A stretch of DNA of 64,000 bases from IMG/VR virus record IMGVR_UViG_3300030329_006380, positions 64,001-128,000 of that record. One strand, 5' to 3'. Positions 32,111 through 60,994 of this stretch are shown here, piece by piece. This DNA is from a virus. Positions within the stretch are counted from its first letter, which is position 1. Every line of letters starts with the position of its first letter. Position numbers and translations under genes: made by a program. Below the pieces are notes generated by a model, which was not told where the DNA came from, made no database searches, and was given only the letters and a program-made list of their open reading frames with translations.

Positions 32111-32118
32111 TAATTAGT
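32111..32118 (-). promoter_or_regulatory. Putative late promoter motif ACTAATTA
   Basis: Same core, overlapping the gp25 stop codon, upstream of the gp6-like RBS. Confidence 0.35.
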
Positions 32119-35400: not shown

Positions 35401-38400
35401 CAGACTTAAGATCATTCCAGAAAACGGATCCATAGTCTGTCACCTTTATATACCGCTCTAAGATAAACGGCAGTGCTGTACCATCGAAAATCTCTTCGGG
35501 GAGTCGAGGAGCGGAACTCAAATTTTGTTCTTCTTTTAGGAGGGAGGGAATATCAACAACCTGTTTAACGAAATACTTGTTTACCGGATCACGTGCGATG
35601 GGATTAATATTTCTAAATCTAGGATTAATATTTCCTAAAAATAAACTATTGATATCCTCTATCTCTGATCCTATATAGCTCTCTACTTCGTGCCTCACGG
35701 TATAGAGTTGTTCGCGTGCCATGAACTCCAAATATCCCATTTTAATTTTATTAGTTTCTGGGTCTCTCTCCCATGAACTAAATTGACCCGAGGCCTCCTC
35801 GTCGCTCACAACTATACACTCGCAATCATAAGATCGGGATACCTCGTCATACCATGTAAAGAATGTTGGCGGATCAATCATAAATTGCGGAGTGTGTGGA
35901 ATTAAGCTTTCCGGGTCTAGACCGTCGCGATACATTCTTTCCGAAATCTCATTTATACTCTGTGGTGTCCAATCCGGAGAGCGAAGATCAGAGGCAGCAG
36001 TGGCGATAATCTCTTCCAGACCCTTGAAAATTTGTTCTCGGAGAGCATCTAGAGTTTGGAGTCTCTCTGGATATCTCTCAATCTCAAGTGCCGGGCCTTG
36101 AGTATAGTCTTTGTCCGGCCACCAATTCAACTCCACCTCAAGAGCATGCAAAGATTCATGATTTTCCGTCAGTCTAGGATCGAAATTATCTCTTCTCTCT
36201 CGATCATCAACAAAATCTGCCGGAAGTTCTCCATTAGAATCTCTCAAAATATCTAAATTTTGTTTATAAGCCCAGTAGACATTATACCAATTACGAAGAG
36301 CAAAATAGTATCTAGAGTGAGGAAGCATATCATCAACATCCTGAAATTTAACACTGATCCTCTCTTGATTCATAATGGGATCAAGCGTAACGATAACTTG
36401 CTGTCCTAGGAATTTATCAAAGAAATTCTCCTCGGCCTCTATTCGTCGCAGAATAGAAATTTCACACCATCTTAAAAATTCTTCATAAAAAGTTGCCTTC
36501 CAAGAAGAAACGTTTTTAATTAATAATCTTTCATGAACTCCTGCATTTTGTAAGAACTTTCGAATTTCTTTGAATCCATGGATTCTCCCACTAAGAGGAA
36601 AGCTCCCTTCTCTTGTTAAGCCATCCCGCAGATGTTTTACAGCTAATTTTAAAATAGGTTCGTCCATAACATCCTGCGAATTGAACCTAGAAAATGGGAA
36701 TATCCCACTTAAAATAAATTCTAACATGTACACTCTTATGAAGGTGTTGACAACGCCCTCAAAAACTGCCATACCAAATCTCTCTTTGTGGTCACTTATA
36801 ATCTGATCGGAATAATATCTGTCTCTCACATGCGCAGTAATTGTATCGATATTAACTAAGCTATCCTTGGGGGGTACACACGCTTTATCCCCCTTGAGCG
36901 CCAGATTTCTCAGTGCCCCGTAGCTAAAATATTTAGAATTACCAACGGCTGCAGCCATTGATTGTAAAAACTCCTGTGTCAATACATTAAAATTATCACG
37001 GAGATAGTAATCATAAAGAGGGGAAGTATCAGCCGTGAGATTAGAGACATCCACACCTACACCTGCGAACTCACGTTGCCAAGTTTTCATCATGAAGTGG
37101 GCGAAAATTTCTTGTTGTAAAGATGCGAAACCCTTAGGTTCATAATTCTTCACAACATCCATATTTAATATTTCAGGTTTTATTTTTTTCTCACCAGCAA
37201 TATTAAGTACCGGGCCGCTTAAAACATTTAAGAAATCTTGTTCATATCCAGATACCGTCGGGCCAGCTACAGACACTACTTCGCTATCTAACTGCACTTC
37301 GTAAAAATCCCTCTGCTTATCCCATTCAACACAGAAAGAAGAAAGAGGAAGAGAATAGGTCATCTTTATTTTCCCAACTATAGGTTCCATACCCATTGCT
37401 CGGGCCAAGGGGGACTGGCCCGATTCATGCTCATTTGTCGGTGTGTCTCCTGCTCCCGGAATATAATCTAATATATTATCCCCCTCGTTAAACTGCAGGT
37501 CGATAGTATCATATGCAAACGATTTAAAGGGTGCCATCTCTAGAGTAAATGCTGTGGCGGTTTTACCCTTGATATCCGCCGCGCTAAACTTGAAATTCTC
37601 CGGTGTACGTAAATCATCCTGCAAGCCTGATCCAATAATCTTTTTTCCTGTTGGTGTCGACATCTTAATTTGTGATAAAGGTCCTCCGGGAGCAGTTAAA
37701 TTACCCAACTGGAGTGGAGAATCGCTATCTGAGTCGACTAAATTCTTAATCATGTTAGAGAATCCGGCCATAGATAAATCCGGAGTAAACATATTGTTTT
37801 CTCTATCTTCTACCGCAGAGGAGACATCTAGAGAAGTGTTACCCGCTAAGATTCCATCAAGATCACTGGGTGATGAATACTTATACTCAGTCTCAATTAG
37901 AGATTCAGGAAAAGAAGTGGCATCACGGTCGAAGGCCATGGCCACTGGCAAGAAAATAGTATCGACGGTTTTGTCAACCATACTTCGAAGCTCTGGTGGG
38001 TCGCGAGGAATCAAACTATCTTCGCCTGGAGCCCCCATTATTGGTGGTATTAACTTTTTAAGGAAGTCCTGCGGGTTCTCAGATAACTGACGAGCGACAT
38101 CACTAACCGCCAAAAGGCGTTGCTGACGGCACAAGCGGACTCCCCTAAGAAGCTCAGCTATTTGATCCGAACTAGAATCTCCTGCCCGCAAACGTTCCTT
38201 AAGTTCATCGATTGGAGCGCCTTCACATATATGATCTGCGATTGGAGTATTATGAATAGAGTTTGAAAGATCAACCAGTTGATCACATATTGTAGTATCC
38301 GATAATCTTCGACCAACAATTATAAATAATTGCTGTATCTGAGTCTGGTCTCTCAAATAAGCTGTTAGTGCGGTGTGTTGACTTTGAAGCAAATCTTCCA

Positions 38401-41389
38401 ACGTATTTAGCGTTCTAGGGTCTGCTTCTCCGCGGATAAGCTGACAAAACTCTTTGGGGCTAACAACTAGAGGAACATCATCCATATATGGCCGCAGCAG
38501 ATCCATATTCATTGGATCTGAGTTGATTCCGGAGCTAATAGCTTCGGCGCTTGCGGGGTCTCCAAAAATATCAAAATTTGTCGCATTGTTCAACAATTGA
38601 TTAAATTCTTCTTGCACCTGTGGATCTGATTTGTCAAATTCGCACCGTAACAAATCATCCAAAAGTTTTTGTATGAGACCTAAGATTATATTCAATAATA
38701 TATCAATAAGAATATCAATTAGCAGGCCCACTAAATAACCAAAAATACCCTCAATAGTGAACCTAGGAATGTCAATATTTGGCAACGACAAATCTATACA
38801 CGAACACAGTAATGGAAGTGCCTTGCAAAGATCTTTACAGATTGCTTCATGAGCAAAGGCAGCGCCCTGTGCGCCTGCGCCCGGACCAAACATCGAATCC
38901 AATCCAGCGACTGCTCCTCCAATTGCCAACTCTGAGGCAACGGCTGCAGCAGGTGGCAAATATGCATCATCGCCTTGATCCAAAATTACGCCGGAGGGAG
39001 TATACTCAAAAGACATTTTATCTGATATCGACACTCCCATAGCATCGGCTGCGGCCTTTATTCCCGGCGGAGTCGGAATCGTGACTTCCCTATTGGCCAA
39101 AGTTGTATTGCGTCCCGGTGGAGACGCAGTGTGAGCCCGAACATATCTCCCTGCACGCGCGCCGGCTGGAAGTTTTTCTGTACTCTCGTTATTTTTAAGA
39201 GAGTCAATAGTTGGTCTAGTTGAATGCCACCATTCTTCTGGTGATTGTGCCGGAGGCGGAGCACCGGTCAAGTTGGCTTGTTCAATTAGGTCTTCCACTT
39301 CTCGCAATTGTTGCTGTGCGCGGTCGCCTTGGGCCTCCAGAACGCTACATGTACACTCTAACGCCTTTTTCATTATTCCGCGTACATTAATGGCATTCCA
39401 TATTTTACCCATATCTTCCCATGTTGGTGATTGATAGTCCTCCGCTGAAAAGAATTGACCGTTAGCGCCGAAGGCACCCTTACCTGCAAGCCTTTTAATA
39501 ATATCAGAAATAACCGGTTCATTAATAAACTCATAATCCGTCTTAAGGCACTGCGAAAGGCCGGGCGACATAAGTTTGATGTCCGCATCTTCCAATAATT
39601 TAAAACTAGCCTTTTTAAGCGGAGAATACTTACTTCGATAAGCTTCAGGTGGTTTAAAATCTATATATCCCTTATCATGCACTTGTTTAGCAGCATCTAT
39701 CAATGCTGTGACGGTATGGATTCCGGATGGTGCGCGGGGGTTGTCTATAGTCGTAAACAAATTAATCGGGGTATTTTTACCCGGACAAGAAGCTAGAACA
39801 AAGCCCTCTTGGTAGTTCAAGAAATCTTTTTTAAGTTTCTCCGGATCTAACAAGTTTTTAATTTGAGCCTTGGTATTTTTACCTATTTTTCCAAAATGAT
39901 CTTTGATCCCATCACTACTCCACAAATCAAAGTCGCAGCATTTTAATGGACGTAAGGGATCGGGTTTGCATGGTCCTTTATCTGAGCTAGCTAAATTTGC
40001 TACTTTATCAGGAGTAGGCATTATAAAGTCCTGAATAAAATCCTCTGCGGATACCTGATTTCTCTTGGATCTGATCACCTCAACCAAAAAATCATAATTT
40101 TCCAAAAGGACCATGGTTCTGGTCATGGAGCAGGGGGCATTTTCCCGGAAGAAATTAAAACCAACCGTCAATGGGATATTCCCTAATCCCTGATCGATCA
40201 TGACATAACTTATCTTGTGGTCCATGTCGAATCCAATTTCGATAAAATCGTTATTTTGTCGACGAAAATTAAAACCGTTTGTCCTCAAAAAATTAGCCAA
40301 AAAAGGTATAAATTCACTTAACCGCTCTGCTTCATATGCAAATGAAAAATCACCATAACCCAGTGGGCCCTTGTACATCCCTTCAACATCTCTCCATTTA
40401 GCATCTTGATGAAACTCCAAAAGATAAAAATTAATTAAATTTATATTCTCTTGCATCTCAGATGTATTGAATCTAACAGTAGTAAAGTGATTTGGTATCT
40501 TCTCTTCCAAGAAGGTGTGTAAATTTCTAGTTCGCTTTGGGATTGCATCGAAATATTTTGCAGGCACAGTAACTAAAACCTTAAGCCCGCCGCCAGGAGG
40601 CGGATCAATATGCCAAGCTGTCGCTCTAGCAAATTCATATGCATCATGCTTAAAGATGTTTTTAAAATCTTCATCTCTTACTTTGTCATAATATTCAAAA
40701 AGTGCATCAATACCCAGAGATATCGCATGATTTTTTCTAGCCTCCAGTTCCTGCTCCGAGCCTCCGGCGCCAGAATCTCTTGTCCTCACGGTAATCCAAT
40801 ATTCACATCTAGGCGCGTACAAATAAGGCTTAATTAAATTAACCCACTGAGAGGTTGTTGCGTCACAAACAGTGCCTTCTAAAGTAGAGGTTATCCTACA
40901 TGTATTGTTGGTAACCGGCAACAATCGCTTGGTCTGGGAAAGTCTTCGAATATATTTTGCCTGAATAAAAGCTTCTGTGTCTGCTAATTCCCCATTCAGT
41001 ATGCGAATTTTGTGAAATTCGGAGTTCCTACCAACATGAGTATTGGTTAATTTGACAATTGTACCAACATGAGCGTTTTGACCGGTGGCCTGCGATAAAT
41101 AATAAGAGTTAACTCTGGCCAATAAGTTGCTTCCGTCAATCAAAACTGCGGGACTGGTGAACACCGGTGGGCACCAAGATCCCTCCACTTTATCTCTCCC
41201 AGTGAAAACAAAATGGGAAGCCTCGGGATATCTTATTGCAGCGGTGTCCGCGGAGCCCAATATTGTCATATATCGCTGAAAATCTTCCTCTTCATTAATG
41301 GACTCTATTTCTTCTATGTAAGAATTCCGGGATGATAGATACTGTATTCGAGCTAGTTGTTGTTTTCTTTCAAAAATTGAATCAGACAT
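32495..41389 (-). CDS. Very large hypothetical protein (2964 aa), probably a virion component
   Basis: Uninterrupted ORF between the spike-like and gp25-like genes. Possible SH3-like stretch near the N-terminus, an amphipathic helix, and many Cys. Confidence 0.5.
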   Translation of the reverse strand: MSDSIFERKQQLARIQYLSSRNSYIEEIESINEEEDFQRYMTILGSADTAAIRYPEASHFVFTGRDKVEGSWCPPVFTSPAVLIDGSNLLARVNSYYLSQATGQNAHVGTIVKLTNTHVGRNSEFHKIRILNGELADTEAFIQAKYIRRLSQTKRLLPVTNNTCRITSTLEGTVCDATTSQWVNLIKPYLYAPRCEYWITVRTRDSGAGGSEQELEARKNHAISLGIDALFEYYDKVRDEDFKNIFKHDAYEFARATAWHIDPPPGGGLKVLVTVPAKYFDAIPKRTRNLHTFLEEKIPNHFTTVRFNTSEMQENINLINFYLLEFHQDAKWRDVEGMYKGPLGYGDFSFAYEAERLSEFIPFLANFLRTNGFNFRRQNNDFIEIGFDMDHKISYVMIDQGLGNIPLTVGFNFFRENAPCSMTRTMVLLENYDFLVEVIRSKRNQVSAEDFIQDFIMPTPDKVANLASSDKGPCKPDPLRPLKCCDFDLWSSDGIKDHFGKIGKNTKAQIKNLLDPEKLKKDFLNYQEGFVLASCPGKNTPINLFTTIDNPRAPSGIHTVTALIDAAKQVHDKGYIDFKPPEAYRSKYSPLKKASFKLLEDADIKLMSPGLSQCLKTDYEFINEPVISDIIKRLAGKGAFGANGQFFSAEDYQSPTWEDMGKIWNAINVRGIMKKALECTCSVLEAQGDRAQQQLREVEDLIEQANLTGAPPPAQSPEEWWHSTRPTIDSLKNNESTEKLPAGARAGRYVRAHTASPPGRNTTLANREVTIPTPPGIKAAADAMGVSISDKMSFEYTPSGVILDQGDDAYLPPAAAVASELAIGGAVAGLDSMFGPGAGAQGAAFAHEAICKDLCKALPLLCSCIDLSLPNIDIPRFTIEGIFGYLVGLLIDILIDILLNIILGLIQKLLDDLLRCEFDKSDPQVQEEFNQLLNNATNFDIFGDPASAEAISSGINSDPMNMDLLRPYMDDVPLVVSPKEFCQLIRGEADPRTLNTLEDLLQSQHTALTAYLRDQTQIQQLFIIVGRRLSDTTICDQLVDLSNSIHNTPIADHICEGAPIDELKERLRAGDSSSDQIAELLRGVRLCRQQRLLAVSDVARQLSENPQDFLKKLIPPIMGAPGEDSLIPRDPPELRSMVDKTVDTIFLPVAMAFDRDATSFPESLIETEYKYSSPSDLDGILAGNTSLDVSSAVEDRENNMFTPDLSMAGFSNMIKNLVDSDSDSPLQLGNLTAPGGPLSQIKMSTPTGKKIIGSGLQDDLRTPENFKFSAADIKGKTATAFTLEMAPFKSFAYDTIDLQFNEGDNILDYIPGAGDTPTNEHESGQSPLARAMGMEPIVGKIKMTYSLPLSSFCVEWDKQRDFYEVQLDSEVVSVAGPTVSGYEQDFLNVLSGPVLNIAGEKKIKPEILNMDVVKNYEPKGFASLQQEIFAHFMMKTWQREFAGVGVDVSNLTADTSPLYDYYLRDNFNVLTQEFLQSMAAAVGNSKYFSYGALRNLALKGDKACVPPKDSLVNIDTITAHVRDRYYSDQIISDHKERFGMAVFEGVVNTFIRVYMLEFILSGIFPFSRFNSQDVMDEPILKLAVKHLRDGLTREGSFPLSGRIHGFKEIRKFLQNAGVHERLLIKNVSSWKATFYEEFLRWCEISILRRIEAEENFFDKFLGQQVIVTLDPIMNQERISVKFQDVDDMLPHSRYYFALRNWYNVYWAYKQNLDILRDSNGELPADFVDDRERRDNFDPRLTENHESLHALEVELNWWPDKDYTQGPALEIERYPERLQTLDALREQIFKGLEEIIATAASDLRSPDWTPQSINEISERMYRDGLDPESLIPHTPQFMIDPPTFFTWYDEVSRSYDCECIVVSDEEASGQFSSWERDPETNKIKMGYLEFMAREQLYTVRHEVESYIGSEIEDINSLFLGNINPRFRNINPIARDPVNKYFVKQVVDIPSLLKEEQNLSSAPRLPEEIFDGTALPFILERYIKVTDYGSVFWNDLKSANIQDFFGPDTNYTSDQMYQLWEKMAPGNRFLTYPNPSRSNPQDPESIYLDLNPEKKQDNTYFKESIVPIEQWFEWLASLGFQDENGNKVNPMWQVNSETGKAIFNYEHMFENMEFGLRLMMVDKQYQKSVYSEESIVEILSDVSTYEEAIDIIKDRDTQNEGTFSLLEELSDEAKGIISRKNKAFLLTESTYSTFNASASGVPFAHQVASVRYPESEIAFLSVPVVEKLQKIDINQLSTSIQGGEDLEYAWFTAPEFPKLSIHTDSMSAGGELLQWRSYEPTYVGDTKVGVTHSGNLDDLYAIIFGIDREYAAGKQIIPASSVCGDMTEILRKITDAGYWENLSYFVSLRRYNDMTNSFSEDNDSAILAIQALDRGIREIEDKIQQYFISRFPWVEKDLWILPQDGGEYPFGSSRIFRADLVRSPEFEGAFGPEGFRHFSDASFLSTVLAVINTSAGLKTFWNTPIQVVVDTTRTKKTRTVPGTCDTNNPATFNHRQLSFPVAQCMEDYWESSNVYETQTTAPCWESWTTRLKTIFKRYLPEKSTSWVESIAGPGSFTKTITVQTGRTTPMLVGTEGWLNSLPDIDTEIPVDEDFHSTWTDNMAPAWALIRRCPVDQAGDPKAIRPDVVRRFIHRGNRIEHHSGNRVLFEPGGCYEEYYHQAIFTETRTVFDSDAYEEFRLTLNQKINDAIERINMRYERKMRRALISINNLQKNYRSSSSSFDFPNLPADAIDLFNGRNGERGYKHRLIEDLISSHNYSLLTDYIFPLKRFASLFSIYSTSKISGLTLYRNVFADTKLHAKQLFIAMASSFVSDENGRPGWWRVDIPEMMKNGAFDPLPWWMKLLQTDLSFNLLAFITYVPKKLLQIILSVPWFAAIVDPLCSVLSGWPWTGKWTTCKDLLGRLPPNRKSDDDDEENLPRRLGDGYGCGTREQIKEREARAAGRKARTSVPNSFSGGADNDFPFGG

Positions 41390-41406: not shown

Positions 41407-42453
41407 CTAATTTGTTGAATTATGGTGGCTTAAAATATATTGTGGTGCCAGAGGTTGCAAATATTTAAATGAATCGGCAACTAAATTAATCCTACCCAAC
41501 AAACAAGGGAACGTACATTGCATTAACATATCAATATTAACTTTTATTCCGGCCGGCAAAGCAGAAAAGGAAAGAGAGGTGGGGGTGGCCGGTGTCGTCG
41601 TCGCGTGGCTGTGGAACATTAGTGCATTATTATATAATGCTTGTGTTTGTATGATATTATCGATAACATTATATATATCATTCAAGGTATCTAACACCGT
41701 ATTACAAAATTCATAAAGATTATTGCCCTTAACTAAGGGCTGTAGCTCCCATTTAGTACCGGGAGTATCCTTGTTGCCGGCTATTAAGTCAATTCCCTCA
41801 GGATGTGCCGCTTCCCAGCCTTGACCCAAAGAGTTTCTCTCATCGGCCCCAGTTATAATTTTAATTCCCGCATCTCGTGAAACCAATCTTATACCGTCAG
41901 CTTTTGCTAATACAAAAGACCTCGGCCAATAATCATTCCCTATTGTCCCTCCGGCCAGCGAATAATCCAAATCCATCCTAGATTTCTGCACAATTTTAAC
42001 ACGTGCAGCGTCCAAAGAAACATGGGGATCTGCATATAGTGGTTCAATCTCAAATTGATCCAGTGCTTTATCGCGAGATTTTGGATCAGAAACTGTTCTA
42101 GCAACAGTAACTTGATTAGTGCGTATCTTAGAATCAACTGTTACTGCACGAACTGCTGGGCCACATGGACCAGCGACTAAATCAATCATGCCGCATAGAG
42201 AGTGGCCCATGCCGCCATACCCAGTCAATCTAGATCCGGGCCTGTCAACACCTAAAGTTATTCTAGCCGTCCTTCTGTCGCTTTCAAGGACTTTTTCTGC
42301 ATCCGCCCTATTATAATAAGGCACTGGCTCAGTCATAAAAGTGCATGCCACTCCCTGAACCCTGCCTTCTATTTCTGCTACTGATCTCTGCACTGGATCC
42401 AATCGATCCGGATCATTAATTTTTTGATAAGTTCCAAAAACTGGATTTGTCAT
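41407..42453 (-). CDS. Baseplate central spike / gp5 C-terminal-like protein
   Basis: Short beta-strand repeats (ADGIRLVSRDAGIKIITG, GIDLIAGN), a coiled coil, and a distal HxH (FHSHAT) typical of metal-binding spike tips. Confidence 0.6.
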   Translation of the reverse strand: MTNPVFGTYQKINDPDRLDPVQRSVAEIEGRVQGVACTFMTEPVPYYNRADAEKVLESDRRTARITLGVDRPGSRLTGYGGMGHSLCGMIDLVAGPCGPAVRAVTVDSKIRTNQVTVARTVSDPKSRDKALDQFEIEPLYADPHVSLDAARVKIVQKSRMDLDYSLAGGTIGNDYWPRSFVLAKADGIRLVSRDAGIKIITGADERNSLGQGWEAAHPEGIDLIAGNKDTPGTKWELQPLVKGNNLYEFCNTVLDTLNDIYNVIDNIIQTQALYNNALMFHSHATTTPATPTSLSFSALPAGIKVNIDMLMQCTFPCLLGRINLVADSFKYLQPLAPQYILSHHNSTN

Positions 42454-42489: not shown

Positions 42490-43800
42490 TTACGGCCGGA
42501 TTATCTGAACATAGTTATCCGGCCATGTCAAAACTTCACGTGTTCCAACATACCATGGCTGTTTAAGAGACTTTTGACTACTAGGATTTCCCGGATCTGG
42601 CTGGACCGATACGTGCTGAAATACGCACCTATCTCCATCTTGACATGTTCCTCCCAGTCTAACCGGTACATTTTTCCTAGTTACTGAGCCCAAAGCAAAA
42701 TCTGTGACTTTGGGCTTGGGATTTCTTACTTGACCCTTTGCCCACGACATCGTTAAGTTCATCATTTTAGATTTTTTATTAATTGTTTCTGACAGGGTCC
42801 AAGATTGAAGTTTTGCTCGCCATGATGTGCGATGTGTAGAGCACTTATCTGTTCCATGGCTCTTTGCACCTTTAGCGCAGAATTTACCAGACGCCAACCA
42901 AAGAGGGTTAATTGGTTGCGAATACGCTCGAATTGTCTTATAATAAGAACTACCATAGCTGTTACCACGAAGTTTAAAAATAACAAATTTTAAGGCCATA
43001 GACCATAGAGTCAAATCTAGATGACCACCTTCTCCAACAAGCATCTTGGCGGCCCAAAATATATCTGCATCTGTAAGCTGATAATTGATTTTTCTATCAG
43101 AAGTAATTATTCTCCCCCATTTCCCATCGAACCCTAAACGTCGGGCTTCCTGCAGATCGGCGGCGGGGATTGATGGAGGAGGAATTGTTGCAGTAATTGG
43201 GCCGGATTGTCTTCCAGAAGTTGAGGAACCCCCCGCAGTACCTATAACATTTGTTCTTTTCAGTCCTGCCGCGGCTTCGGCACCTAGATATAATGGGTCT
43301 TCTCTGGTAGCGAGATTCCCGAATCTAACACGAACTATTTGACCGGGGTTTGGTATTTCCACAGAATCAGATTGCGCATAAAAAGTTGGATACATATCAA
43401 TTATTGGATGCCAACATTTCGAAATCTTCTTACCGGTAAGTTTTGATAAACAATCTTCACTGCCGGTAAATACTGGTACCGGCAACATATAATGTAATTC
43501 TGGGATTCTAACTTTAACGGCGACTAGTGTTGGCGGAGTAGAAGACTTACCTCTATATTTTTTCATTGGAAAGGAACCGGGCTCATAAGGAAACTTAGAA
43601 TTATTTGAACTGCCTAGCGATTGTTCTACACGCAATACCACACCAACAAAATCTTCTCTTTTGCTGGTAATATCATGATTGTGTTGGTCCTCGGCTATCT
43701 TTTTAGAAGTATTAACAAAATTAGTGTTATTGTTCTTTCTGTGACCAAACTTACTAGCCTTAGTGGGGTTGATAATTGAGTCTAAATTTTCAATGCTCAT
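42490..43800 (-). CDS. gp5-like OB-fold hub protein with putative SleB/Hydrolase_2-like cell-wall hydrolase
   Basis: N-domain FVGVVLRVE...VKVRIPELH...PNPGQIVRVRF...DPLYLG. The C-domain DIFWAAKMLVGEGG resembles the SleB catalytic 'LA..I..EA' helix. Confidence 0.5.
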   Translation of the reverse strand: MSIENLDSIINPTKASKFGHRKNNNTNFVNTSKKIAEDQHNHDITSKREDFVGVVLRVEQSLGSSNNSKFPYEPGSFPMKKYRGKSSTPPTLVAVKVRIPELHYMLPVPVFTGSEDCLSKLTGKKISKCWHPIIDMYPTFYAQSDSVEIPNPGQIVRVRFGNLATREDPLYLGAEAAAGLKRTNVIGTAGGSSTSGRQSGPITATIPPPSIPAADLQEARRLGFDGKWGRIITSDRKINYQLTDADIFWAAKMLVGEGGHLDLTLWSMALKFVIFKLRGNSYGSSYYKTIRAYSQPINPLWLASGKFCAKGAKSHGTDKCSTHRTSWRAKLQSWTLSETINKKSKMMNLTMSWAKGQVRNPKPKVTDFALGSVTRKNVPVRLGGTCQDGDRCVFQHVSVQPDPGNPSSQKSLKQPWYVGTREVLTWPDNYVQIIRP

Positions 43801-43809
43801 GATATGTTC

Positions 43810-45483
43810 CTAAGCCTTCACGCTCGATGCATTTGGAGAAGAAGTTTTATTATATGTTATTTCATTGCTTTTCTTCCAATATAATTCTAAACCTGGAGTG
43901 GGAGCAATTCTTTTTCCCGTTGCCCCTGAAGTTGTATGAGTGGTTATTGTCGCGGCCATATGTATTCCGGAGACCTCTACCTCTATCCATCCATATTCCT
44001 GTCCAACATCGCTCTGTAATCTCCTTCGAACCATGCTGCGAAGATGGAAGCCGGCCTGTGCTTTTTTTGAAACGGTGGCGATAAATAATTTTGCGCAAGG
44101 GTCAGGATGGGTCTTTACTCTCATGAATTCGCCTGTTTTTTTCCATCCATATGGCTGAGTTTCTCCGCGGCCGATGAATCTAGGCTGCGAAAAATTAAAT
44201 ATTGGACTCGTAGCACAGCGGCCGCGTGGAACAAATTTTGCACCAGATGATGGTGTGGATGTACCAGATTCACGCTTTGGGGGCCCAGGGCGGCCCTTAC
44301 AATAAGGGTTACCATCATAAGATTGTTTCGACGAGCGGGCGGATTCAGCAACCGATGGATCGCCCTTAAACTCAAAATGCATAGAATCAACATACCCCTT
44401 CCAGTCGCCGCCCCAACTAAATCCATACCTCTTAAATGCTGCTATCACACACTCCGGAAGATCATAAATTAATACACCTTGTTTTGCGGGGTTTTGTGCA
44501 GGATTAATGTCAATTGCTGTTCCCCATGCATGATTACTAATACCTATCTTGCAATCATTAGGAAACGTACCTTGATGTCTCATGCACCTGCAGGCATACG
44601 TTCCGGGTCCCGGAAGGCCTTGATAGAATTTATAATTCTGAGCTTCTTGGCACATGGCTATATCTGCTTCCACCATCTCAAAAGCAGCAGCAGCAGCGGG
44701 ATTAACCGGTATTTTTCTATTCCTAAAATTCACGTTTGCCCTTTTACCTTTACATGGTGCACCATAAAATTGATCTCTCATTTGGGCGTTTCTTACAACT
44801 ACCGGAACACGTGGATAACTACCACATGTCGCAGCCGGAATATTGGCTCCGCCGCCCGGTATTCCTCCGCCTCCGCCTCCGCGGCCAACCCCATAGCTTC
44901 TTGCGCCACCGGTGGTTGCAACCGTTGGAGCAAAGTACTTAGTTTCGGAGCTTATATATATGGGATCGGTGCCGGCATTAAAATTTCGGAATGTTACACG
45001 TACAAGTTCTCCGGGATCTGGGGTTGGGAGATCACTGGTTTCCGCATAAAAAGTTGGATATAGGTCTATTATCGGGTGATGACATTTCTTTACTGTGTCT
45101 TTATCGCTACATGGCTCTGACCCCAATTGGTTTGGGACAGGAAGCATGGCATGGATCTCCGGTATCCGAACTTTAATCGCAACTAATTGCGGGGCTGTCT
45201 CACCACGATATTTTTTAGTCATCAGTGATCCTGGCTCAAAGGGCCATGAAGAATCACCAACAGTATTAGTTTCCACCCTTAAAACCATCCCAACATAGAA
45301 CTTTCTTTTTTTTGTTGTATCCTTTGTGTATTGAGCTTCCGCTAGTTCTTTAACTGAGGAAGTATATTTCTTGCCTCGCGTATGTCGCGGGCCATATTTA
45401 GACGGCGCATCATGCGTTATGTGCGATTCTAAAAATGATTTATCACTTACCATTTCGTGATATCCCCATAAATCTAAGACCAA
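43810..45483 (-). CDS. gp5-like OB-fold hub protein with M15-family Zn peptidoglycan peptidase
   Basis: Same N-domain, a Gly-rich linker, then R...SNHAWGTAIDIN and WGGDW...DSMHFE. The true start may be MVSDK at 45453. Confidence 0.82.
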   Translation of the reverse strand: MVLDLWGYHEMVSDKSFLESHITHDAPSKYGPRHTRGKKYTSSVKELAEAQYTKDTTKKRKFYVGMVLRVETNTVGDSSWPFEPGSLMTKKYRGETAPQLVAIKVRIPEIHAMLPVPNQLGSEPCSDKDTVKKCHHPIIDLYPTFYAETSDLPTPDPGELVRVTFRNFNAGTDPIYISSETKYFAPTVATTGGARSYGVGRGGGGGGIPGGGANIPAATCGSYPRVPVVVRNAQMRDQFYGAPCKGKRANVNFRNRKIPVNPAAAAAFEMVEADIAMCQEAQNYKFYQGLPGPGTYACRCMRHQGTFPNDCKIGISNHAWGTAIDINPAQNPAKQGVLIYDLPECVIAAFKRYGFSWGGDWKGYVDSMHFEFKGDPSVAESARSSKQSYDGNPYCKGRPGPPKRESGTSTPSSGAKFVPRGRCATSPIFNFSQPRFIGRGETQPYGWKKTGEFMRVKTHPDPCAKLFIATVSKKAQAGFHLRSMVRRRLQSDVGQEYGWIEVEVSGIHMAATITTHTTSGATGKRIAPTPGLELYWKKSNEITYNKTSSPNASSVKA

Positions 45484-46772
45484 TCAACTATGCCATTACT
45501 AACTCTCTGGCAGCGTTCTATCATTTTTTCATAAGCGGCGCGTGGTGGAAGACCCCTTGATCTAAAATAAGTATATGTCATTTGCGTAGTACCATCTGCT
45601 CTGCGAGAAGGCGATATGTGAGAGTGCGCCAATAGGCCTGGCGGGGGTGGATTTGACCGGGACCAATCTCCCTTAATAGTATAGTCTGTACCATTAAGAC
45701 CCACCCACCTCATCGGTGTAGAAGTCTGACCAGTGACTTGTCTAACAATCGTCCACGCTGATTCATAAGAAGCTAGCGGAGGTACCGGATATGTTCTAGA
45801 AATCCAATGTGAAAAATTATAAATTCGTACCGGAACCTTCTCTACGCTTTGATATGTTTTCCTATGCCACCCTTGTAAAGCTCTTGCTTGGAATGGATTA
45901 ACGACTTCGAAGCCAACAGATCTAGGGTTGTATAAACTCCCTGCGTGAACGCCCCATTGGTCATAACTAGCTAAATTCCACAGTTTTCCATCCCATCCAA
46001 CATAATGGTGCAAAAAACCCGATTTACTGTTATTGACATAATTAATACTCTTCCCAGCATGCATTGGGCCGCCAGTTTCATGCATAACTAACCACACCAC
46101 ATCGCTTGTAGCTCTCTGATATGTTCGGTTCCATCCTGTAAACCCTTCAGGGAGGACTGCGCCCTGAAAATTCTTCCAATTTCCCGAAACGGTCTTGACT
46201 GCGCCATACGCAGATACAGAAGTTCCATCACCAATGGCCATCCTTAGGTTCCCTGTCTCCGGCGATAAATAAACCGGATCTTTAAAATTATTTAAATCAC
46301 CATATTTAACCCTAACAATATCACCGGGTGCTGGAGTTGGGACCCCCGGATTGATTGCATAAAAGGTAGGATACAAATCAATAATAGGGTGGTGACATCT
46401 TTTTAAAATATTTCTATTTCTTTTCCCAGTGCAATCAGTGGCTGGTCCTCCAGAGGGAATGGATGGCACTGGTAGCATGGTGTGAAGCTCTGGGATACGA
46501 ACTTTTATCGCAACCAATTTGGGAGGAGTCCCTGTTTTAGCGCGATATTTCTTAAGAGGCATTGAGCCAGGTTCGTATTCTCCCTCTCCACTAGTACTAG
46601 CTTCAACACGAAGAACGATGCCGCAAAAAGTACCCTGTTTATCAGTGGCATCATTTTGAAATGCCTTTTCATTGGTTTTTTTTGCAGATTTTACAAAATC
46701 TGTATTAACATCATCTCGCGGCCCGTATTTCGGAGCATCGAACCAGTTTAAGAAGGTATCTAAAACCGACAT
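45474..46772 (-). CDS. gp5-like OB-fold hub protein with N-acetylmuramoyl-L-alanine amidase (Amidase_2)
   Basis: Same N-domain, then LVMHETGG, HHYVGWDG, HAG..NPRSVGFEVVN and LLAHSHI...D. Confidence 0.82.
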   Translation of the reverse strand: MSVLDTFLNWFDAPKYGPRDDVNTDFVKSAKKTNEKAFQNDATDKQGTFCGIVLRVEASTSGEGEYEPGSMPLKKYRAKTGTPPKLVAIKVRIPELHTMLPVPSIPSGGPATDCTGKRNRNILKRCHHPIIDLYPTFYAINPGVPTPAPGDIVRVKYGDLNNFKDPVYLSPETGNLRMAIGDGTSVSAYGAVKTVSGNWKNFQGAVLPEGFTGWNRTYQRATSDVVWLVMHETGGPMHAGKSINYVNNSKSGFLHHYVGWDGKLWNLASYDQWGVHAGSLYNPRSVGFEVVNPFQARALQGWHRKTYQSVEKVPVRIYNFSHWISRTYPVPPLASYESAWTIVRQVTGQTSTPMRWVGLNGTDYTIKGDWSRSNPPPPGLLAHSHISPSRRADGTTQMTYTYFRSRGLPPRAAYEKMIERCQRVSNGIVDWS

Positions 46773-47074
46773 TATTCTCCGCCTTGAATTATCTCAAATA
46801 GTTCATCGCGATCCTCGTTGGTCAACTCATTTGAAGCATCTTTTTTCTTCTGCAACAAGGAAGCTAATTTAACCAACTGTTCATTTGAACGCTGCAGTGT
46901 CTCTACATATTTTGCTGCGATCAGGCCGACGCCTCTATGGTTTTCATCTGATTTCTTTATATAGGCCAAAAGATCGACCAACAATGTTTTTGTTAACGAG
47001 CGATCTTCATGGATATTTTCTACGGCCTCTTTTATAAATTCTTCAGTGCTTTTTAAATCTTTCCCGTATCCCAT
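46772..47074 (-). CDS. Small helical hypothetical protein (100 aa)
   Basis: AKYVETLQRSNEQLVKL; TAATG-coupled to the amidase gene. Confidence 0.65.
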   Translation of the reverse strand: MGYGKDLKSTEEFIKEAVENIHEDRSLTKTLLVDLLAYIKKSDENHRGVGLIAAKYVETLQRSNEQLVKLASLLQKKKDASNELTNEDRDELFEIIQGGE

Positions 47075-47763
47075 TTCTTTTTAAATTCCCTATATCGTGC
47101 GCGGAGCTTGTTAAGGTTATTGACAATCTGTTTTGTGTTAAGTCCTGTAAGTTCTCGCAAGTATAGATAAATAGCCTTTTTATTGAAAATTTCTATTTCG
47201 TCACAGCTTTTAAGAAGTATTTTAACAGCCTCAAGTACTTTCTTTTCATTCTCCTTTAAAGAGCCAGTATCCCAAGTTTCGATCTCCGTCCATAGGTAAT
47301 GCCAGAATTCTGCTTCTTCGCGCCATGTGTCATATTCATTATATACAACCATATTATCTGATGCAGGTTCCTCCATGAAATAGTCTTCATAAAGCACCTC
47401 TCTCTTGTTTCTTTTAGAAGTTTTCTTAACCTCGTGAATAAACCAATTTTTTGTAATTACACTGAAATAGGAAAATGCCTTTGATCCCTTGTTCGGATCA
47501 TATTTGTCCAATATTGTTGTTAACCAGATTTTACAATCTTCCCGAAGACAGTCGATATTCGGAAGTGTTGTAAATTTGTAAGTATATACGATTTTATCAA
47601 CCATTTCGCTAAACACAGGCCCAATAAATTTAATATATAAATCACTTCGAATATCGGCATCTTCTGTATTAGCATATGCTACTATTGCATCTTCATGCAC
47701 TTGAGTGAAGTACTGCTTCTTCTTGCTCCGTCGGCGCCGGGTCTTCCTCTTCTTCTCTGTCAT
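47053..47763 (-). CDS. Phage RNA polymerase sigma factor (sigma-70 region 2, gp55-like)
   Basis: YFTQVHEDAIVAY...MVDKIVYTYKF...DKYDPNKGSKAFSYFSVITKNWFI; GAGGAG RBS. Confidence 0.8.
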   Translation of the reverse strand: MTEKKRKTRRRRSKKKQYFTQVHEDAIVAYANTEDADIRSDLYIKFIGPVFSEMVDKIVYTYKFTTLPNIDCLREDCKIWLTTILDKYDPNKGSKAFSYFSVITKNWFIHEVKKTSKRNKREVLYEDYFMEEPASDNMVVYNEYDTWREEAEFWHYLWTEIETWDTGSLKENEKKVLEAVKILLKSCDEIEIFNKKAIYLYLRELTGLNTKQIVNNLNKLRARYREFKKKWDTGKI

Positions 47764-48339: not shown

Positions 48340-48525
48340 TTAATTATATTGTTCCCCTTCATCAATGTCAAATTTAACTTTAGGAGGGTTAGTTACAACT
48401 ATCTCACTATTCTCATCAATTTCTAATTCAAATCCTTTAAGGGTGCGGGTTACATCTGAGCGCTCCAGTATTGCTTTCTGTAATGCTAGCATAACTGCTC
48501 CCAGTGCTTGATCTGATAATTTCAT
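48340..48525 (-). CDS. Small hypothetical protein (61 aa)
   Basis: Start MKLSDQAL at 48525, with ATGA overlap and GGAG RBS. Confidence 0.65.
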   Translation of the reverse strand: MKLSDQALGAVMLALQKAILERSDVTRTLKGFELEIDENSEIVVTNPPKVKFDIDEGEQYN

Positions 48526-49400
48526 TCTCTCTCCTTTAATTTTTGAAAACAAGAGTTTATCCCCTGTTCAATATTTATTTTTGTTTTCCATCCCAACGAC
48601 TCTAGAGGAGCAATATCTGCTCTGGTCTCCCTTACGTCTCCACTCCTCTCTGATATGCGCGAGAACGTCACATTTGGAAAATATTTATTAACAATCGACG
48701 CTACCTCATTTAGAGATATATTACTACCAGTTGCTGTATCATAGTGGCGACCTTTGAAATTGCCCTTGTAATTCATACAGAAAATATTAGCAGATACAAC
48801 ATCAGAAACATGAATCATATCTCGGCGCTGATCTCCGGCGCCAGTAATATATGGATCTTTCCCCTTTCGAATGTAATCCATAAAATTAGCAATTGCCGTT
48901 GCATATGGACCATCGACCTCCTGATCCTCTGAGTATACATTAAAGTAACGAAGAGATACTGTATCTAAGCCATAAACATCAGAATAGTTTTTACATAAAA
49001 TCTCTGGTATTAATTTTGATGCGCCATATGGGCTGGTTGGCCCATCTCCATTGCCAACTACAGATGAAGAACTAGAGTAAATCACCCTCTTGGCACCATT
49101 CTTTCTGGCGTATTCCAGAATTCGAATTGTGGAAAGAACGTTGTTCTCTAAGACCTCCTCGGGAAATTCCATGCTATATGGAACTCGTGGAATCGCCGCA
49201 AGGTGAAAAATGTACTCTGGTCTGAAGCACTTATATCTTTTGTGATTTAAGTCATGAATTATATCCAGCCCATCTTTTAAATCAATACCTCGAACAACGC
49301 AACCCATCTTCTTCAAGGCTTTGTAAACACGAGATCCAATATATCCTCTATATCCTGTTACTAAACATCTAATAGCCATATAGTCACAATTTATATCCAT
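48522..49400 (-). CDS. NAD-dependent nucleotide-sugar epimerase/dehydratase (extended SDR)
   Basis: VTGYRGYIGS, HLAA, SSSS, YGASK and LRYFNVY. Confidence 0.9.
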   Translation of the reverse strand: MDINCDYMAIRCLVTGYRGYIGSRVYKALKKMGCVVRGIDLKDGLDIIHDLNHKRYKCFRPEYIFHLAAIPRVPYSMEFPEEVLENNVLSTIRILEYARKNGAKRVIYSSSSSVVGNGDGPTSPYGASKLIPEILCKNYSDVYGLDTVSLRYFNVYSEDQEVDGPYATAIANFMDYIRKGKDPYITGAGDQRRDMIHVSDVVSANIFCMNYKGNFKGRHYDTATGSNISLNEVASIVNKYFPNVTFSRISERSGDVRETRADIAPLESLGWKTKINIEQGINSCFQKLKERE

Positions 49401-50005
49401 TTGAAGTTAATATTTTTTAAGTTCTCCTCTTGAACGCGGCGCTTAATCTCTTCTGTGGCCGGCCTCAAGGATGGAATCTTTTTCTCGTGGGTCTCAACAA
49501 AGACATAGGGGATATCATGCAAAGCCCCATTATCCAATAAATGCTCTAGGAGATCACACTCAGCACCCTCGATATCTATTTTTAAGACCTGTATATTCTT
49601 TTTAAATTTATTCTTAATTTTCTGAATTATTCGATTGAGATCAATCGTTTTGACTTCTACATAATCATCAATGTTAACGTTGCTCTTCTCACTCACCAAG
49701 GAACTCCCAGTAGAATATTTTAAAGGATCTTCTGGTGATTTCTGGTGCATATATAACTTTGAAACTCCGTCACTAGAAGAAACTGCCGCTTTAAAACACC
49801 TTACATTGCGATTATTCTTAAATCGATTAGACAATACATCAAAAGCTCTATCATTCGGCTCATAAGCTAACACTATTGCTCCATGATTTATAAATAAATT
49901 TGTAATATCGCCGATATTTGCACCACAATCAATAACAATATCGCCTGAGTTTATAATCACGTCAACGAGGCTATTATCTTTAAGCTTTACTTGCAACACA
50001 CTCAT
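49391..50005 (-). CDS. FkbM-family SAM methyltransferase
   Basis: VIDCGANIG, AYEPN and LKIDIEGAE. Confidence 0.9.
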   Translation of the reverse strand: MSVLQVKLKDNSLVDVIINSGDIVIDCGANIGDITNLFINHGAIVLAYEPNDRAFDVLSNRFKNNRNVRCFKAAVSSSDGVSKLYMHQKSPEDPLKYSTGSSLVSEKSNVNIDDYVEVKTIDLNRIIQKIKNKFKKNIQVLKIDIEGAECDLLEHLLDNGALHDIPYVFVETHEKKIPSLRPATEEIKRRVQEENLKNINFKWI

Positions 50006-50895
50006 TGTTTCTCCCGCGATATCATCATACTTCTGGCTATTTTTTTAGTATACCCGTTGAGCCATGGCTCTAAGTTTTCTCTACAGGTTATAGCTATAGC
50101 ATCTTCGTTTTTAATATTTTCATAAATGCCACGATTGAATCCATCTGTCTGGACGATATGGGTTGGTTTATACCCCAGTTTTGCAAAGAGTTCAGGTTGT
50201 GGTCTGGGCGTTGCAACAATGTAGCTACACCTAAAACCGATATCAAAATATTTTCTCAAAATATTTTCAAAATCATTGTTTTCTGAATATTCTGACGGGT
50301 GGATTTCCAAAAGTATGTGAGTTTCCCCCATATTTTTTTTAAAATATTCATACCCTCCGTTAAAGACTGACACCTCGTGACCCTCAATATCCATTTTTAT
50401 GAAATTGGGGTATCTTCTATTTTGAAAAAATGTTTCTAGTGTGAAGCATTCAACTGTCTCTTCCCTCACACTGTGTTTGGTTTTATTAATACTGTTTAAG
50501 TTTGGCTGTCGTGCAATCCAAAAAGATGATTCCCCATCATGGTCGGATATTAAACACTTATTAAGCTCGCAACGATCTGGTGTTAGATATCCATTTTTTT
50601 TAATATTTGTTTTTAAAAATTTCAAATTATGGGCGTCAGGCTCAATGGCGTAAACAAAGCCAGAAAACCCACTATTCCTGAGCATGATCATTGTAGCGTA
50701 GCCTATATTGGCGCCCAGATCTAAACATGTCATACCAGGCTTGACCGTCTTATTCATGATAGCCATAAAGGCGCACTCTCGTGAAAAAGAAAAACCTTTG
50801 CCATCAGTGTGCGAATAATACAGAGTGCTTCCAATACCGCCATCATTAATGTCTAGAATCCATTTAAAATCATCAACTTCTTTTCTATATAACAT
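50002..50895 (-). CDS. FkbM-family SAM methyltransferase
   Basis: LDLGANIGY, AIEPD and IKMDIEGHE. Confidence 0.9.
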   Translation of the reverse strand: MLYRKEVDDFKWILDINDGGIGSTLYYSHTDGKGFSFSRECAFMAIMNKTVKPGMTCLDLGANIGYATMIMLRNSGFSGFVYAIEPDAHNLKFLKTNIKKNGYLTPDRCELNKCLISDHDGESSFWIARQPNLNSINKTKHSVREETVECFTLETFFQNRRYPNFIKMDIEGHEVSVFNGGYEYFKKNMGETHILLEIHPSEYSENNDFENILRKYFDIGFRCSYIVATPRPQPELFAKLGYKPTHIVQTDGFNRGIYENIKNEDAIAITCRENLEPWLNGYTKKIARSMMISREKQ

Positions 50896-52027
50896 CACTA
50901 CCCCCACTAGAATCTATCACACAATAATTAATATTCTCTTGTTCCAGTGCATAAAAAAGATTCTGATATGAAAAAGGATAATTGTCTAAATGTTGATTTA
51001 TTGAGTTCCCTCTCTTATTCTTTACTCGATTCAAAAGTCTCTCTCGATGAATATACGGCTTTACGTAGCATATAATCGCAGTTGCATCTTTATCCCGCAG
51101 TATCCTTACCCACTCATTAATGTTCGGCTTAAACCCACTAAGCGATTTGTAATTCGGAGCAATATATATCACAGGATAGTCATCTGTAAACGTTGTTATA
51201 TTTTTCCCATATTTTAGCGATCTCCCCTCACCATCAAAAACCTTGTTTTTAATGATATTCTCCCCCTTGTATTCTACTGGTATATTATAAAAATCATGCA
51301 AGAGCCTCGTTTTCCCAGAAGCGCCGGGACCAATTACAATCCCCCTCTTAAGATTTCGAACCGATTCTAAATCACTAAAAAATATTTTTCTTTTTTGAAA
51401 AATGCAAACATATCTCTCTGGGCCCATAAAGCTTTCTTGATTATCACTAGCCTGTTTAATTAACAAGTCATAATTTCTCTCCCGAAGAAAGGAGATTATA
51501 TCCTGTAGGTTTAGATTTCCTTCAAACTTAACTTCCTTACCTATATCTCTCTCGTAGGCGTCATAGAATCCAAATAATGGAGCTTCTATGCAGATCATAT
51601 CATTCGATAGTTCTGCTACTAAGTCCAATATCTTGTAAGGAGTCTGTACGTGATGTAAAATATTTAATAAGAATATACAATCATATGATTCTTTCGTTTC
51701 ACTTAAAAATGGTTCAAGTTTAGATAATATAAAATTTATATTATCGATATTATTTTTTTCAGCAATATCGATTCCAATATTTAATTTTTTATCATCGATA
51801 TCAACCGCGGTACCTTTTAATATTTTATCTTGTATATTAAACAAAATTGCGCCGGCGGCGGTACCCAAATCTAAAACACTTTTATTATTAAAATAATCAC
51901 CACCAAACATATCAATAATATAATTAGGTGTTCTATTTTTGTCGCCATCTTTCCCCATATAAACCCTGTCACCTATCTGTATATGTCTATAGGTTTTTTG
52001 TGGGTATGCTATATTCTTTTTACCCAT
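50885..52027 (-). CDS. Class I SAM methyltransferase fused to a P-loop (kinase-like) domain
   Basis: VLDLGTAAG, AVDID and LNILHH, then IVIGPGASGKT. Confidence 0.75.
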   Translation of the reverse strand: MGKKNIAYPQKTYRHIQIGDRVYMGKDGDKNRTPNYIIDMFGGDYFNNKSVLDLGTAAGAILFNIQDKILKGTAVDIDDKKLNIGIDIAEKNNIDNINFILSKLEPFLSETKESYDCIFLLNILHHVQTPYKILDLVAELSNDMICIEAPLFGFYDAYERDIGKEVKFEGNLNLQDIISFLRERNYDLLIKQASDNQESFMGPERYVCIFQKRKIFFSDLESVRNLKRGIVIGPGASGKTRLLHDFYNIPVEYKGENIIKNKVFDGEGRSLKYGKNITTFTDDYPVIYIAPNYKSLSGFKPNINEWVRILRDKDATAIICYVKPYIHRERLLNRVKNKRGNSINQHLDNYPFSYQNLFYALEQENINYCVIDSSGGSDVI

Positions 52028-52901
52028 CGTTCACCCCATTTTGTTTTTTTATAAATTCTTCTAAATCAATAACATCTTTTGAGTATTTTTCATTAGCAAA
52101 TTTCTTCCATAAATTTATTCTATGATTTAAATTTTTTCGTTGTGAATCTGTAAGCATGTATATTCCATTGTTGATAAAATTGTGATATCTATTTTCCTTT
52201 TCAGTCTTTGTAATGATTGTATTTTGCACTCCCTTGAAGTGCTGTATACACGTTCCATCAAACCAATCAGATTTTGGATTTGATCTGTTCAGATAATCAC
52301 AATGTATTGCCAAAAATCTTATACCTCTTTCATCAAATTTGAAATAGTCATCCCTAGAAGAGGACAACACACTATTAACAAATTTAGAGTCTCTATTTAT
52401 TAAATTTATAAAAGTATACTGGTCATTTTGATTCCTTTTTATATCAGCAATCATATTAGATTCATAATCTTCAAAAAATTTAAGAGCTTTTTCATTTCTC
52501 CTGACAAGCATAACTCCACTGTTAATCCACTGTGGAAGACTATGCCTCCAAGTAAAAATAAAGTCTGCGGCGTTCTCCTCCGCCATTTTTATAAAGCTAT
52601 CAATATTTTTCAACAAAGCAGTATCGTTATCCATAAACAAAACCCATTCACTATCTGCTTCTTTAAAACCCTGATTCCAGCAAATAATTTTTAAACTCCC
52701 AGGTGAAATTCTAACAAATCCTATTTCATCTCTAAGCTTATTAATTCTATCTTCATCTGTTGGAGTGTCTTTTCCAACAACATTGATTTTCATTTCTGGA
52801 TAAATAGCCTTTACACTATTTTTTAATGATCCGACATAAGGATCACAGCAAGTTCCGAATGAACTTGCTACAACTGATATTTTATCTTTTGTTATTGCCA
52901 T
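52020..52901 (-). CDS. GT-A fold glycosyltransferase (nucleotide-diphospho-sugar transferase-like)
   Basis: WVLFMDNDT (DxD), INSGVMLV, NDQ and HFKG. Start MAITK at 52901 with GGAG RBS. Confidence 0.75.
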   Translation of the reverse strand: MAITKDKISVVASSFGTCCDPYVGSLKNSVKAIYPEMKINVVGKDTPTDEDRINKLRDEIGFVRISPGSLKIICWNQGFKEADSEWVLFMDNDTALLKNIDSFIKMAEENAADFIFTWRHSLPQWINSGVMLVRRNEKALKFFEDYESNMIADIKRNQNDQYTFINLINRDSKFVNSVLSSSRDDYFKFDERGIRFLAIHCDYLNRSNPKSDWFDGTCIQHFKGVQNTIITKTEKENRYHNFINNGIYMLTDSQRKNLNHRINLWKKFANEKYSKDVIDLEEFIKKQNGVNDG

Positions 52902-52902
52902 A

Positions 52903-54486: not shown

Positions 54487-54487
54487 C

Positions 54488-57169: not shown

Positions 57170-57179
57170 ATCACTTCCC

Positions 57180-59713: not shown

Positions 59714-59714
59714 C

Positions 59715-60986: not shown

Positions 60987-60994
60987 AGTATCTC

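Follow-up and report, generated by a model that had tools for sequence, protein, structure and literature searches.

Three tandem genes joining a candidate gp5-type OB domain to different C-terminal domains in the baseplate module of an uncultured T4-like phage

We analyzed a 64,000-nucleotide stretch of DNA (hereafter, the window) that covers bases 64001–128000 of the 136,483-bp virus record IMGVR_UViG_3300030329_006380 from IMG/VR (completeness of 62 % according to CheckV), which we describe as belonging to an uncultured, aquatic, contractile-tailed phage of the T4-like type. Three adjacent genes of the window, here denoted paralogs A, B and C, encode proteins in which a common N-terminal domain (N-domain) is followed by a linker and then by mutually unrelated C-terminal domains (C-domains), two of which belong to established families of peptidoglycan hydrolases. 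We propose, with a probability that we would put at about 0.6, that these proteins are tail-tip peptidoglycan hydrolases and represent, jointly with the product of the next gene, a split version of the spike protein gp5 of phage T4. On this reading, gp5 is encoded in two pieces, namely the gene or genes for the OB-fold domain with its enzyme and a separate gene for the spike body.

The common N-terminal domain

All three paralogs are open reading frames (ORFs) of the minus strand. Paralog A (45474–46772, 432 amino acids), in the first slot of the array, consists of an N-terminal helix and OB region (approximately residues 1–175), a Gly/Ser/Thr-rich linker and an Amidase_2 domain. Paralog B (43810–45483, 557 amino acids), in the second slot, combines the N-domain with a Gly-rich linker, a Peptidase_M15_4 domain and a C-terminal tail of about 160 amino acids, whereas paralog C (42490–43800, 436 amino acids), in the third slot, contains an N-domain with a CWHP signature, a linker and a conserved C-domain of about 220 amino acids. 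Paralogs B and C align with paralog A over the first 175–200 residues or so, with 46 % and 49 % identity, respectively; past the N-domain, the three sequences have nothing in common. Both the common N-domain of the three neighbors and the unrelatedness of their C-domains, as reported in the first-pass annotation of this DNA, are thus borne out. The motif quoted in that annotation (VLRVE, EPGS, KKYR, KVRIPE.H.MLPVP, C.HPIID.YPTFYA, PG..VRV, DP.Y) is present in the sequences, and so are the Gly/Ser/Thr-rich linkers directly after it. A hidden Markov model (HMM) of the N-domain family detected exactly three copies in the window, with E-values from 1e-61 to 1e-65, and a protein search of the whole 136-kb record found the domain in A, B and C only; the paralogy of the N-domains is far beyond chance. 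The true start of paralog B is probably an ATG located 10 codons inside the listed ORF, which begins with TTG, because A and C lack counterparts of the additional N-terminal residues; the predicted protein would then be 547 amino acids long.

The N-domain did not match any Pfam or PHROG model (the PHROG scans included family members that consist of the N-domain alone), and PDB sequence searches with five profiles (A1, A2, A3, A8 and A9) yielded nothing usable; a PHROG ‘tape measure’ match obtained among the whole members of the N-domain family was not traced to a region. We built an AlphaFold2 (AF2) model of the paralog A N-domain from a 50-sequence alignment (predicted local distance difference test score, pLDDT, of 79.8; predicted template modeling score, pTM, of 0.74), in which short N-terminal helices are followed by a five-stranded barrel spanning residues 46–175. 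Exhaustive structural alignment (VIA) of this model with 48,161 PDB chains placed central-spike or VgrG proteins in the four top positions, namely the baseplate protein of phage P1 (Z-score 7.8), the spike of cyanophage A-1(L) (7.0), the OB domain of VgrG1 (6.8) and the contractile injection system of Streptomyces coelicolor (6.6). The alignment with the cyanophage spike begins at model residue 18, in the N-terminal helical part that precedes the barrel. The top 50 include some 10 additional spikes, among them the KP1 gp5-like protein, those of Mu, phiKZ and the R2 pyocin, and gpV of P2. Furthermore, when the N-domain profile was compared using hhalign with a profile of eight T4-like gp5 OB domains (T4 and seven diverse phages), the alignment spanned 83 columns, kept the register that the motif predicts and had a score of 25.6 (P 0.004) that none of the 200 column-shuffled controls attained (mean 12.7, standard deviation 2.7, maximum 21.8). 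Collectively, the structural model, the structural matches with spike OB domains, the profile comparison and the gene position discussed below make a moderate, although not a decisive, case that the N-domain is a divergent OB module of the gp5 type, in line with the gp5/VgrG OB-fold recognized in the first-pass annotation.

The description of the paralogs as gp5-like hub proteins, given in the same annotation, does not hold in the full sense. The sequences terminate after the enzyme domain without a beta-helix, and no match to the Gp5_C model was found in the 136-kb record. The gp27-like domain that would precede the OB domain is absent as well: the OB domain starts within 45 residues of the N-terminus, with the enzyme directly after it. 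The likely spike body is the product of a separate downstream gene.

Enzyme domains, cargo exchange and the three slots

The Amidase_2 domain (PF01510) of paralog A was identified at residues 224–313 with an E-value of 1.1e-8 and 35.9 bits, compared with the Pfam cut-off of 26 (38.6 bits in a repeat scan), and by eye the sequence shows zinc-ligand-like H..T and H.H...D motifs. The Peptidase_M15_4 domain (PF13539) of paralog B occupies residues 315–371 and was recognized with an E-value of 7.8e-19 and 68.5 bits against a cut-off of 25. These two enzyme assignments, made originally from the sequence alone, accordingly stand, whereas the third, a SleB-like putative lytic transglycosylase in paralog C, found no counterpart among known families. 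The paralog C domain returned nothing in Pfam, NCBIfam, PHROG or PDB-sequence searches, and the Hydrolase_2/SleB model (PF07486) did not match paralog C at E ≤ 10. Weak structural neighbors from Hydrolase_2 clusters of the ESM Atlas (template modeling scores of 0.34–0.41) and the stretch LWAA.M.VGEGG, which by eye resembles a SleB-type motif, leave the SleB-like or lytic transglycosylase activity as a weak lead. Because the enzyme call for paralog C is weak, the attack on all three bond types of peptidoglycan that had been ascribed to the three proteins is unproven. Homologs of the C-domain of paralog C are encoded in L004/L005 and P0032 and as the free-standing proteins P0288–P0290; the free-standing relatives (204–236 amino acids) end in a hydrophobic tail resembling a membrane anchor. 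The tail of paralog B (approximately residues 395–557; 43810–44298, minus strand) has no relative among the collected proteins and no Pfam match.

A search of 1.84 billion representatives with the N-domain profile retrieved, at E ≤ 1e-3, 937 clusters, all of them metagenomic, and in these proteins, which range from 166 to 1564 amino acids, the domain is always N-terminal. Scanning 145 family members against Pfam revealed at least ten types of enzymatic cargo: VanY in 49 members, Amidase_2 in 21, Muramidase in 19, Peptidase_M15_4 in 7, GDSL esterase in 6 (three Pfam models taken together), Peptidase_M74 in 4, Peptidase_M23, CHAP and Peptidase_M15_3 in 2 each, and Phage_lysozyme2 and Glyco_hydro_46 in 1 each. 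Some of the long members carry two enzymes per chain. Given this range of exchangeable wall-degrading cargo, the N-domain is best regarded as a conserved adaptor, and the swapping of C-domains in the manner of a polymorphic VgrG cassette, which had been conjectured for the three paralogs, is clearly seen among their relatives. The tail tip of these phages thus probably carries an exchangeable kit of enzymes.

Most of the relatives possess a single copy of the N-domain, L048 has two, and a single clade has three. This three-copy clade comprises the window, L004/L005 and L011, the contig of which ends within the third copy, so that L011 encodes at least three. In the N-domain tree, the clade is set apart from the single-copy lineages with a support of 100/100, and within it the N-domains from the same slot of different phages cluster together, rather than those of one genome (paralog C with the third copy of L011, 99/97; paralog B with P0006 and the second copy of L011, 97/95). 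The triplication is therefore old, a conclusion with which the pairwise scores and the signature of slot 3 (CWHP, compared with CHHP in slots 1 and 2) concur. The cargo varies within the slots while the N-domain type persists: from slot 1 to slot 3, the window encodes Amidase_2, M15_4 and the C-type domain, L004 encodes the C-type domain, M15_4 and Amidase_2, and L011 encodes a GDSL-like domain (weak), an M23-like domain (weak) and the C-type domain. The comparison of the window with L004 is suggestive of a cargo exchange between slots 1 and 3; the N-domain tree leaves the placing of copies 1 and 3 of L004 unsettled. The N-domains of the three-copy clade also share an inserted segment between OB strands that contains two invariant cysteines and a following histidine (C..x11..C-H/W-H), located in paralog A at residues 114–128 (approximately 46390–46440, minus strand) and at the equivalent positions of B and C, and not present in the single-copy lineages. 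This insertion might form a metal site or a disulfide at a subunit interface.

If the split-gp5 reading is correct, each paralog would consist of a gp5-type docking module (the short helices and the OB barrel) tethered by a flexible linker to one wall enzyme, and would equal the gp5* half of T4 gp5, that is, OB domain plus lysozyme, encoded separately from the spike body. We infer that the proteins are components of the virion in which the OB modules form a trimeric collar by which the spike sits on the hub. Contraction of the sheath would drive the spike through the outer membrane, after which the tethered enzymes would cut the wall locally and let the tube pass. In the single-copy relatives, the collar would be a homotrimer; in the clade of the window, an old gene triplication would have created three slots, the order of which was kept while the enzyme part was exchanged at the linker.

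How the collar might be composed in the three-copy clade can be considered in the light of the slot phylogeny. One possibility, which we find doubtful, is an obligate A-B-C heterotrimer seated on the separate spike, with one copy of each paralog in the OB collar (1:1:1), so that each virion would carry all three enzymes, and with fixed slots between which, and between phages, the cargo would be reshuffled by recombination at the linker. Three genes in two of the phages and at least three in the third, the persistence of three N-domain lineages in a conserved order despite the changing cargo, and the slot-specific signatures are all in keeping with such an arrangement. However, the old triplication followed by vertical descent accounts for the three persisting lineages as well, L048 carries two copies rather than three, and one gene suffices in most of the relatives, some of which place two enzymes in one chain. 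Should the heterotrimer be real, three wall-cutting chemistries would be brought by every virion to one puncture site, and the array is in any case an instance in which to ask whether a spike collar with C3 symmetry can consist of three different subunits. Somewhat less credible, and in our view unlikely, are alternative homotrimers, with each paralog trimerizing with itself, one type or a random mix in any given virion, and a phage population mixed in its wall-cutting chemistry. The single-copy relatives must form homo-oligomers, and the OB cores of the paralogs have remained 46–49 % identical, which fits this possibility; yet each activity would be missing from a third of the virions, and the tight packing of the paralog genes, with spacers of 9–36 nucleotides, suggests equal co-expression.

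The adjacent candidate spike gene and the proposed docking of the hydrolases

In the order of transcription, the module consists of the genes for a gp55-like late sigma factor and a protein of about 100 amino acids, paralogs A, B and C, a gene for a 348-amino-acid protein (41407–42453, minus strand), a gene for a giant protein of 2964 amino acids, and genes for gp25-like and gp6-like proteins. We compared this arrangement with 8 metagenome assembly contexts and 26 IMG/VR loci that encode relatives of the N-domain. A gene of the 348-amino-acid family comes after the N-domain gene or genes in all 34 contexts (8/8 and 26/26, respectively), either immediately or with one gene inserted between. Beyond it, a giant protein is encoded next wherever the contigs of the relatives reach, and then, in most of these, gp25 and gp6, as in L006 and L007. 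In the single-copy relative L008, a free-standing 203-amino-acid gene resembling Glyco_hydro_19 (L008:9148–9759, plus strand) lies between the gene combining the N-domain with VanY and the spike-family gene, a different route to a second enzyme.

The 348-amino-acid protein, with a beta-rich N-terminal half and a helical hairpin that carries an HxH motif, is the likely spike body. Its family, made up of proteins of about 310–350 amino acids, is very abundant, with more than 1620 clusters that partly derive from samples of Tara Oceans, and the two histidines of the HxH motif (H281 and H283) show no variation in 57 sequences. An HxH located close to the C-terminus has been described as the only sequence feature common to all spike apex domains (bioRxiv 10.1101/2023.02.25.529910); given that HxH occurs in fibers too, its presence is only suggestive of an apex-domain spike. 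A search of BFVD with the 348-amino-acid protein yielded a single homolog, which is unnamed, besides a weak row labeled ‘Gp5/Vgr OB’ (E 0.09). We also looked for a chain in which the N-domain and the spike body are fused, and this was ruled out among the collected proteins (0 of 287, that is, 167 + 120).

An alternative that we consider improbable is that the 348-amino-acid protein is a complete spike with an OB domain of its own, in which case the hydrolases would dock elsewhere, for example, at the giant or tape-measure protein's distal end within the tube or in a peripheral collar, and would be ejected along with that protein. In the AF2 model of this protein, residues 54–184 form three strands, a helix and two strands, an order that fits the OB topology, and the N-terminal helices of the cyanophage A-1(L) spike contact the tape measure protein (PMC10966104). 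Moreover, Flavobacterium phage immuto, the nearest cultured phage by its gp6, has a single gene at the corresponding position, and the 378-amino-acid product shows no hydrolase motif by eye. Against this alternative, the profile of the 348-amino-acid family scored at background level with gp5 OB and showed no similarity to the N-domain either, whereas the N-domain has its best structural matches among the OB domains with which spikes bind the hub. With this family at background and the Pfam gp5 models empty in the record, no other gp5-OB-like sequence was detected in the module. No significant link between the immuto protein and either the N-domain or the 348-amino-acid family emerged from hhalign comparisons, although the order of the aligned stretches is the same in both proteins, and HMM searches of the locus were empty.

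Several observations weigh against the split-gp5 reading itself. The Pfam models Gp5_OB (PF06714) and Phage_base_V (PF04717) have no match in the paralogs, nor in the 136-kb record at E ≤ 1. Foldseek searches with the N-domain model gave weak OB-fold matches (E-values of 0.05–0.2), a baseplate chain of phage P1 and T4 gp5 among them; the structural Z-scores, all below 8, are middling and interleaved with those of generic OB folds (ribosomal protein S12, IF1A and a ligase OB domain); and the probability that HH-suite itself assigns to the match with gp5 OB is 8 %. As regards the spike body, the AF2 monomer model of the 348-amino-acid protein is poor (pLDDT 69), Foldseek and VIA searches with this model recovered helical hairpins only, and the identification is indirect; moreover, the modeled residues 54–184 could be an OB barrel, and the hydrolases would then need another docking site. 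A gp27-like hub was not identified in the record, which is partial. Finally, blastn and tblastn searches of 50,697 phage records, in which the region, the N-domain, the 348-amino-acid protein, the third C-domain and the relatives P0207 and P0288 served as queries, found nothing for the N-domain or the 348-amino-acid protein, and hence no cultured relative; P0015 matched phage records through its VanY part only.

A separate Amidase_2 gene that lacks the N-domain is located outside the window, in locus L013 (G000:C1:7443–7967, minus strand, within an open frame of 252 amino acids; E 1.1e-22, AmpD-like by NCBIfam), and is likelier to encode the endolysin of the phage. It is very improbable that the paralogs are instead ordinary soluble endolysins with a wall-binding N-terminal OB domain and not parts of the virion: the PHROG matches of the C-domains are all labeled endolysin and the same enzyme families act as endolysins elsewhere, but the genes belong to the baseplate module, beside a spike-family gene in every context, between the late sigma factor and the spike, gp25 and gp6 genes and not in a lysis cassette (holins and spanins were not searched for), the N-domain resembles the OB domains of spikes, the free-standing Amidase_2 exists, and three endolysins in tandem would be unusual.

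Relation to known systems and other features of the locus

The closest analogy is with gp5 of T4, specifically gp5*, which has the same succession of an N-terminal OB domain, a linker and a peptidoglycan hydrolase, matches the N-domain at the profile level in register, and is likewise encoded in a baseplate module near gp6 (here, beside gp25 as well). T4 gp5 differs in that the OB domain, the lysozyme and the beta-helix are encoded in one gene (575 amino acids), whereas here the spike body is separate, there are three paralogs, none with a T4-type lysozyme, and their OB domain escapes the Pfam Gp5_OB model. After assembly, T4 gp5 is cleaved by proteolysis into gp5* and gp5C, so that the arrangement described here would be a natural example of a gp5 that is split where the T4 protein is cut. 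Evolved VgrG proteins, such as VgrG-3 of Vibrio cholerae with its peptidoglycan-degrading C-domain, similarly place exchangeable C-terminal effectors on a conserved spike scaffold and come as several paralogs per genome; VgrG1–3 of V. cholerae are reported to form mixed trimers, which speaks for the heterotrimer considered above, and the N-domain model has one of its best structural matches in the VgrG1 OB domain (Z 6.8). In the evolved VgrG proteins, however, the gp27-like part, the OB domain and the beta-helix form one chain and the effector follows the helix, whereas in the paralogs the cargo comes after the OB domain.

Two further phages combine spike or hub proteins with several wall-degrading domains. 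CBB_240, the spike protein of the RaK2-like jumbo phage CBB of Pectobacterium, identified as a virion protein by mass spectrometry, contains gp5 OB, M23 and lysozyme domains (PMC5259590) and thus resembles the proteins described here in having more than one domain akin to wall hydrolases behind a gp5-type N-terminal OB domain; unlike them, it is a single long multidomain chain, recognized by the standard gp5 models, from a group of phages in culture. The baseplate core of cyanophage A-1(L) includes lysozyme-, endoglucanase- and peptidase-like domains, two of which have been shown to be active (PMC10966104). The spike protein of this phage, gp25, consists of an N-terminal helix and an OB domain, like the N-domain model (Z 7.0), but its enzymes are domains of one hub protein chain, gp15, and not OB-bearing paralogs.

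In the literature, we came upon no tandem triplet that precedes a separate spike gene. OB-anchored tail lysins and VgrG-like cargo polymorphism are already known; what appears to be new is an OB variant missed by the existing models, its genetic split from the spike, and an ancient three-slot array with reshuffled cargo, all in uncultured phages only. Tail-tip lysins decide whether a contractile phage crosses a given cell wall, and a large, wholly uncultured lineage seems to rely on a single, previously undescribed docking domain of the gp5 type, a universal adaptor to which at least ten kinds of wall enzymes are attached, with enzymes combined either within one multidomain chain or across tandem paralogs. 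The N-domain thereby offers a handle for annotating hundreds of ‘hypothetical’ metagenomic proteins, and the docking domain together with its linker is a ready natural scaffold for studying the exchange of cell-wall enzymes among phages.

Every large ORF of the window is on the minus strand. The module is headed by the gp55-like late sigma factor (47053–47763, 236 amino acids; phrog_234, E 3.3e-5), and a gene for a protein of about 230 amino acids occupies this position in all related loci. Directly upstream of the paralogs lies the ORF for the protein of about 100 amino acids (46772–47074), which has counterparts of 96–118 amino acids in every related locus. The encoded protein is acidic and helical and is conserved also in phage immuto. 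At the other end of the array, the giant protein of 2964 amino acids (32495–41389), syntenic with giants of 1754–2942 amino acids in the relatives, is possibly a tape-measure or ejection protein. Around residue 860, its sequence is strongly hydrophobic, and as a tape measure it would be unusually long. It is followed by the gp25-like baseplate wedge protein (32114–32491, 125 amino acids; phrog_261, E 1.9e-21), with GPW_gp25 present in syntenic loci, and by the gp6-like baseplate wedge protein (30274–32091, 605 amino acids; phrog_6, E 2.5e-19), which is 29 % identical to the baseplate wedge protein of immuto. A second giant ORF of the baseplate module (20033–28771, minus strand) encodes 2912 amino acids. 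There is no sign of a T4-type late promoter, with TATAAATA occurring 12 times compared with 7.7 expected and none of the occurrences near the paralog genes. Upstream of the late sigma factor, a long cluster of sugar-modifying genes (48522–62257, minus strand) includes epimerase-like and methyltransferase-like genes and several glycosyltransferases, and related contigs carry sugar genes at the same position.

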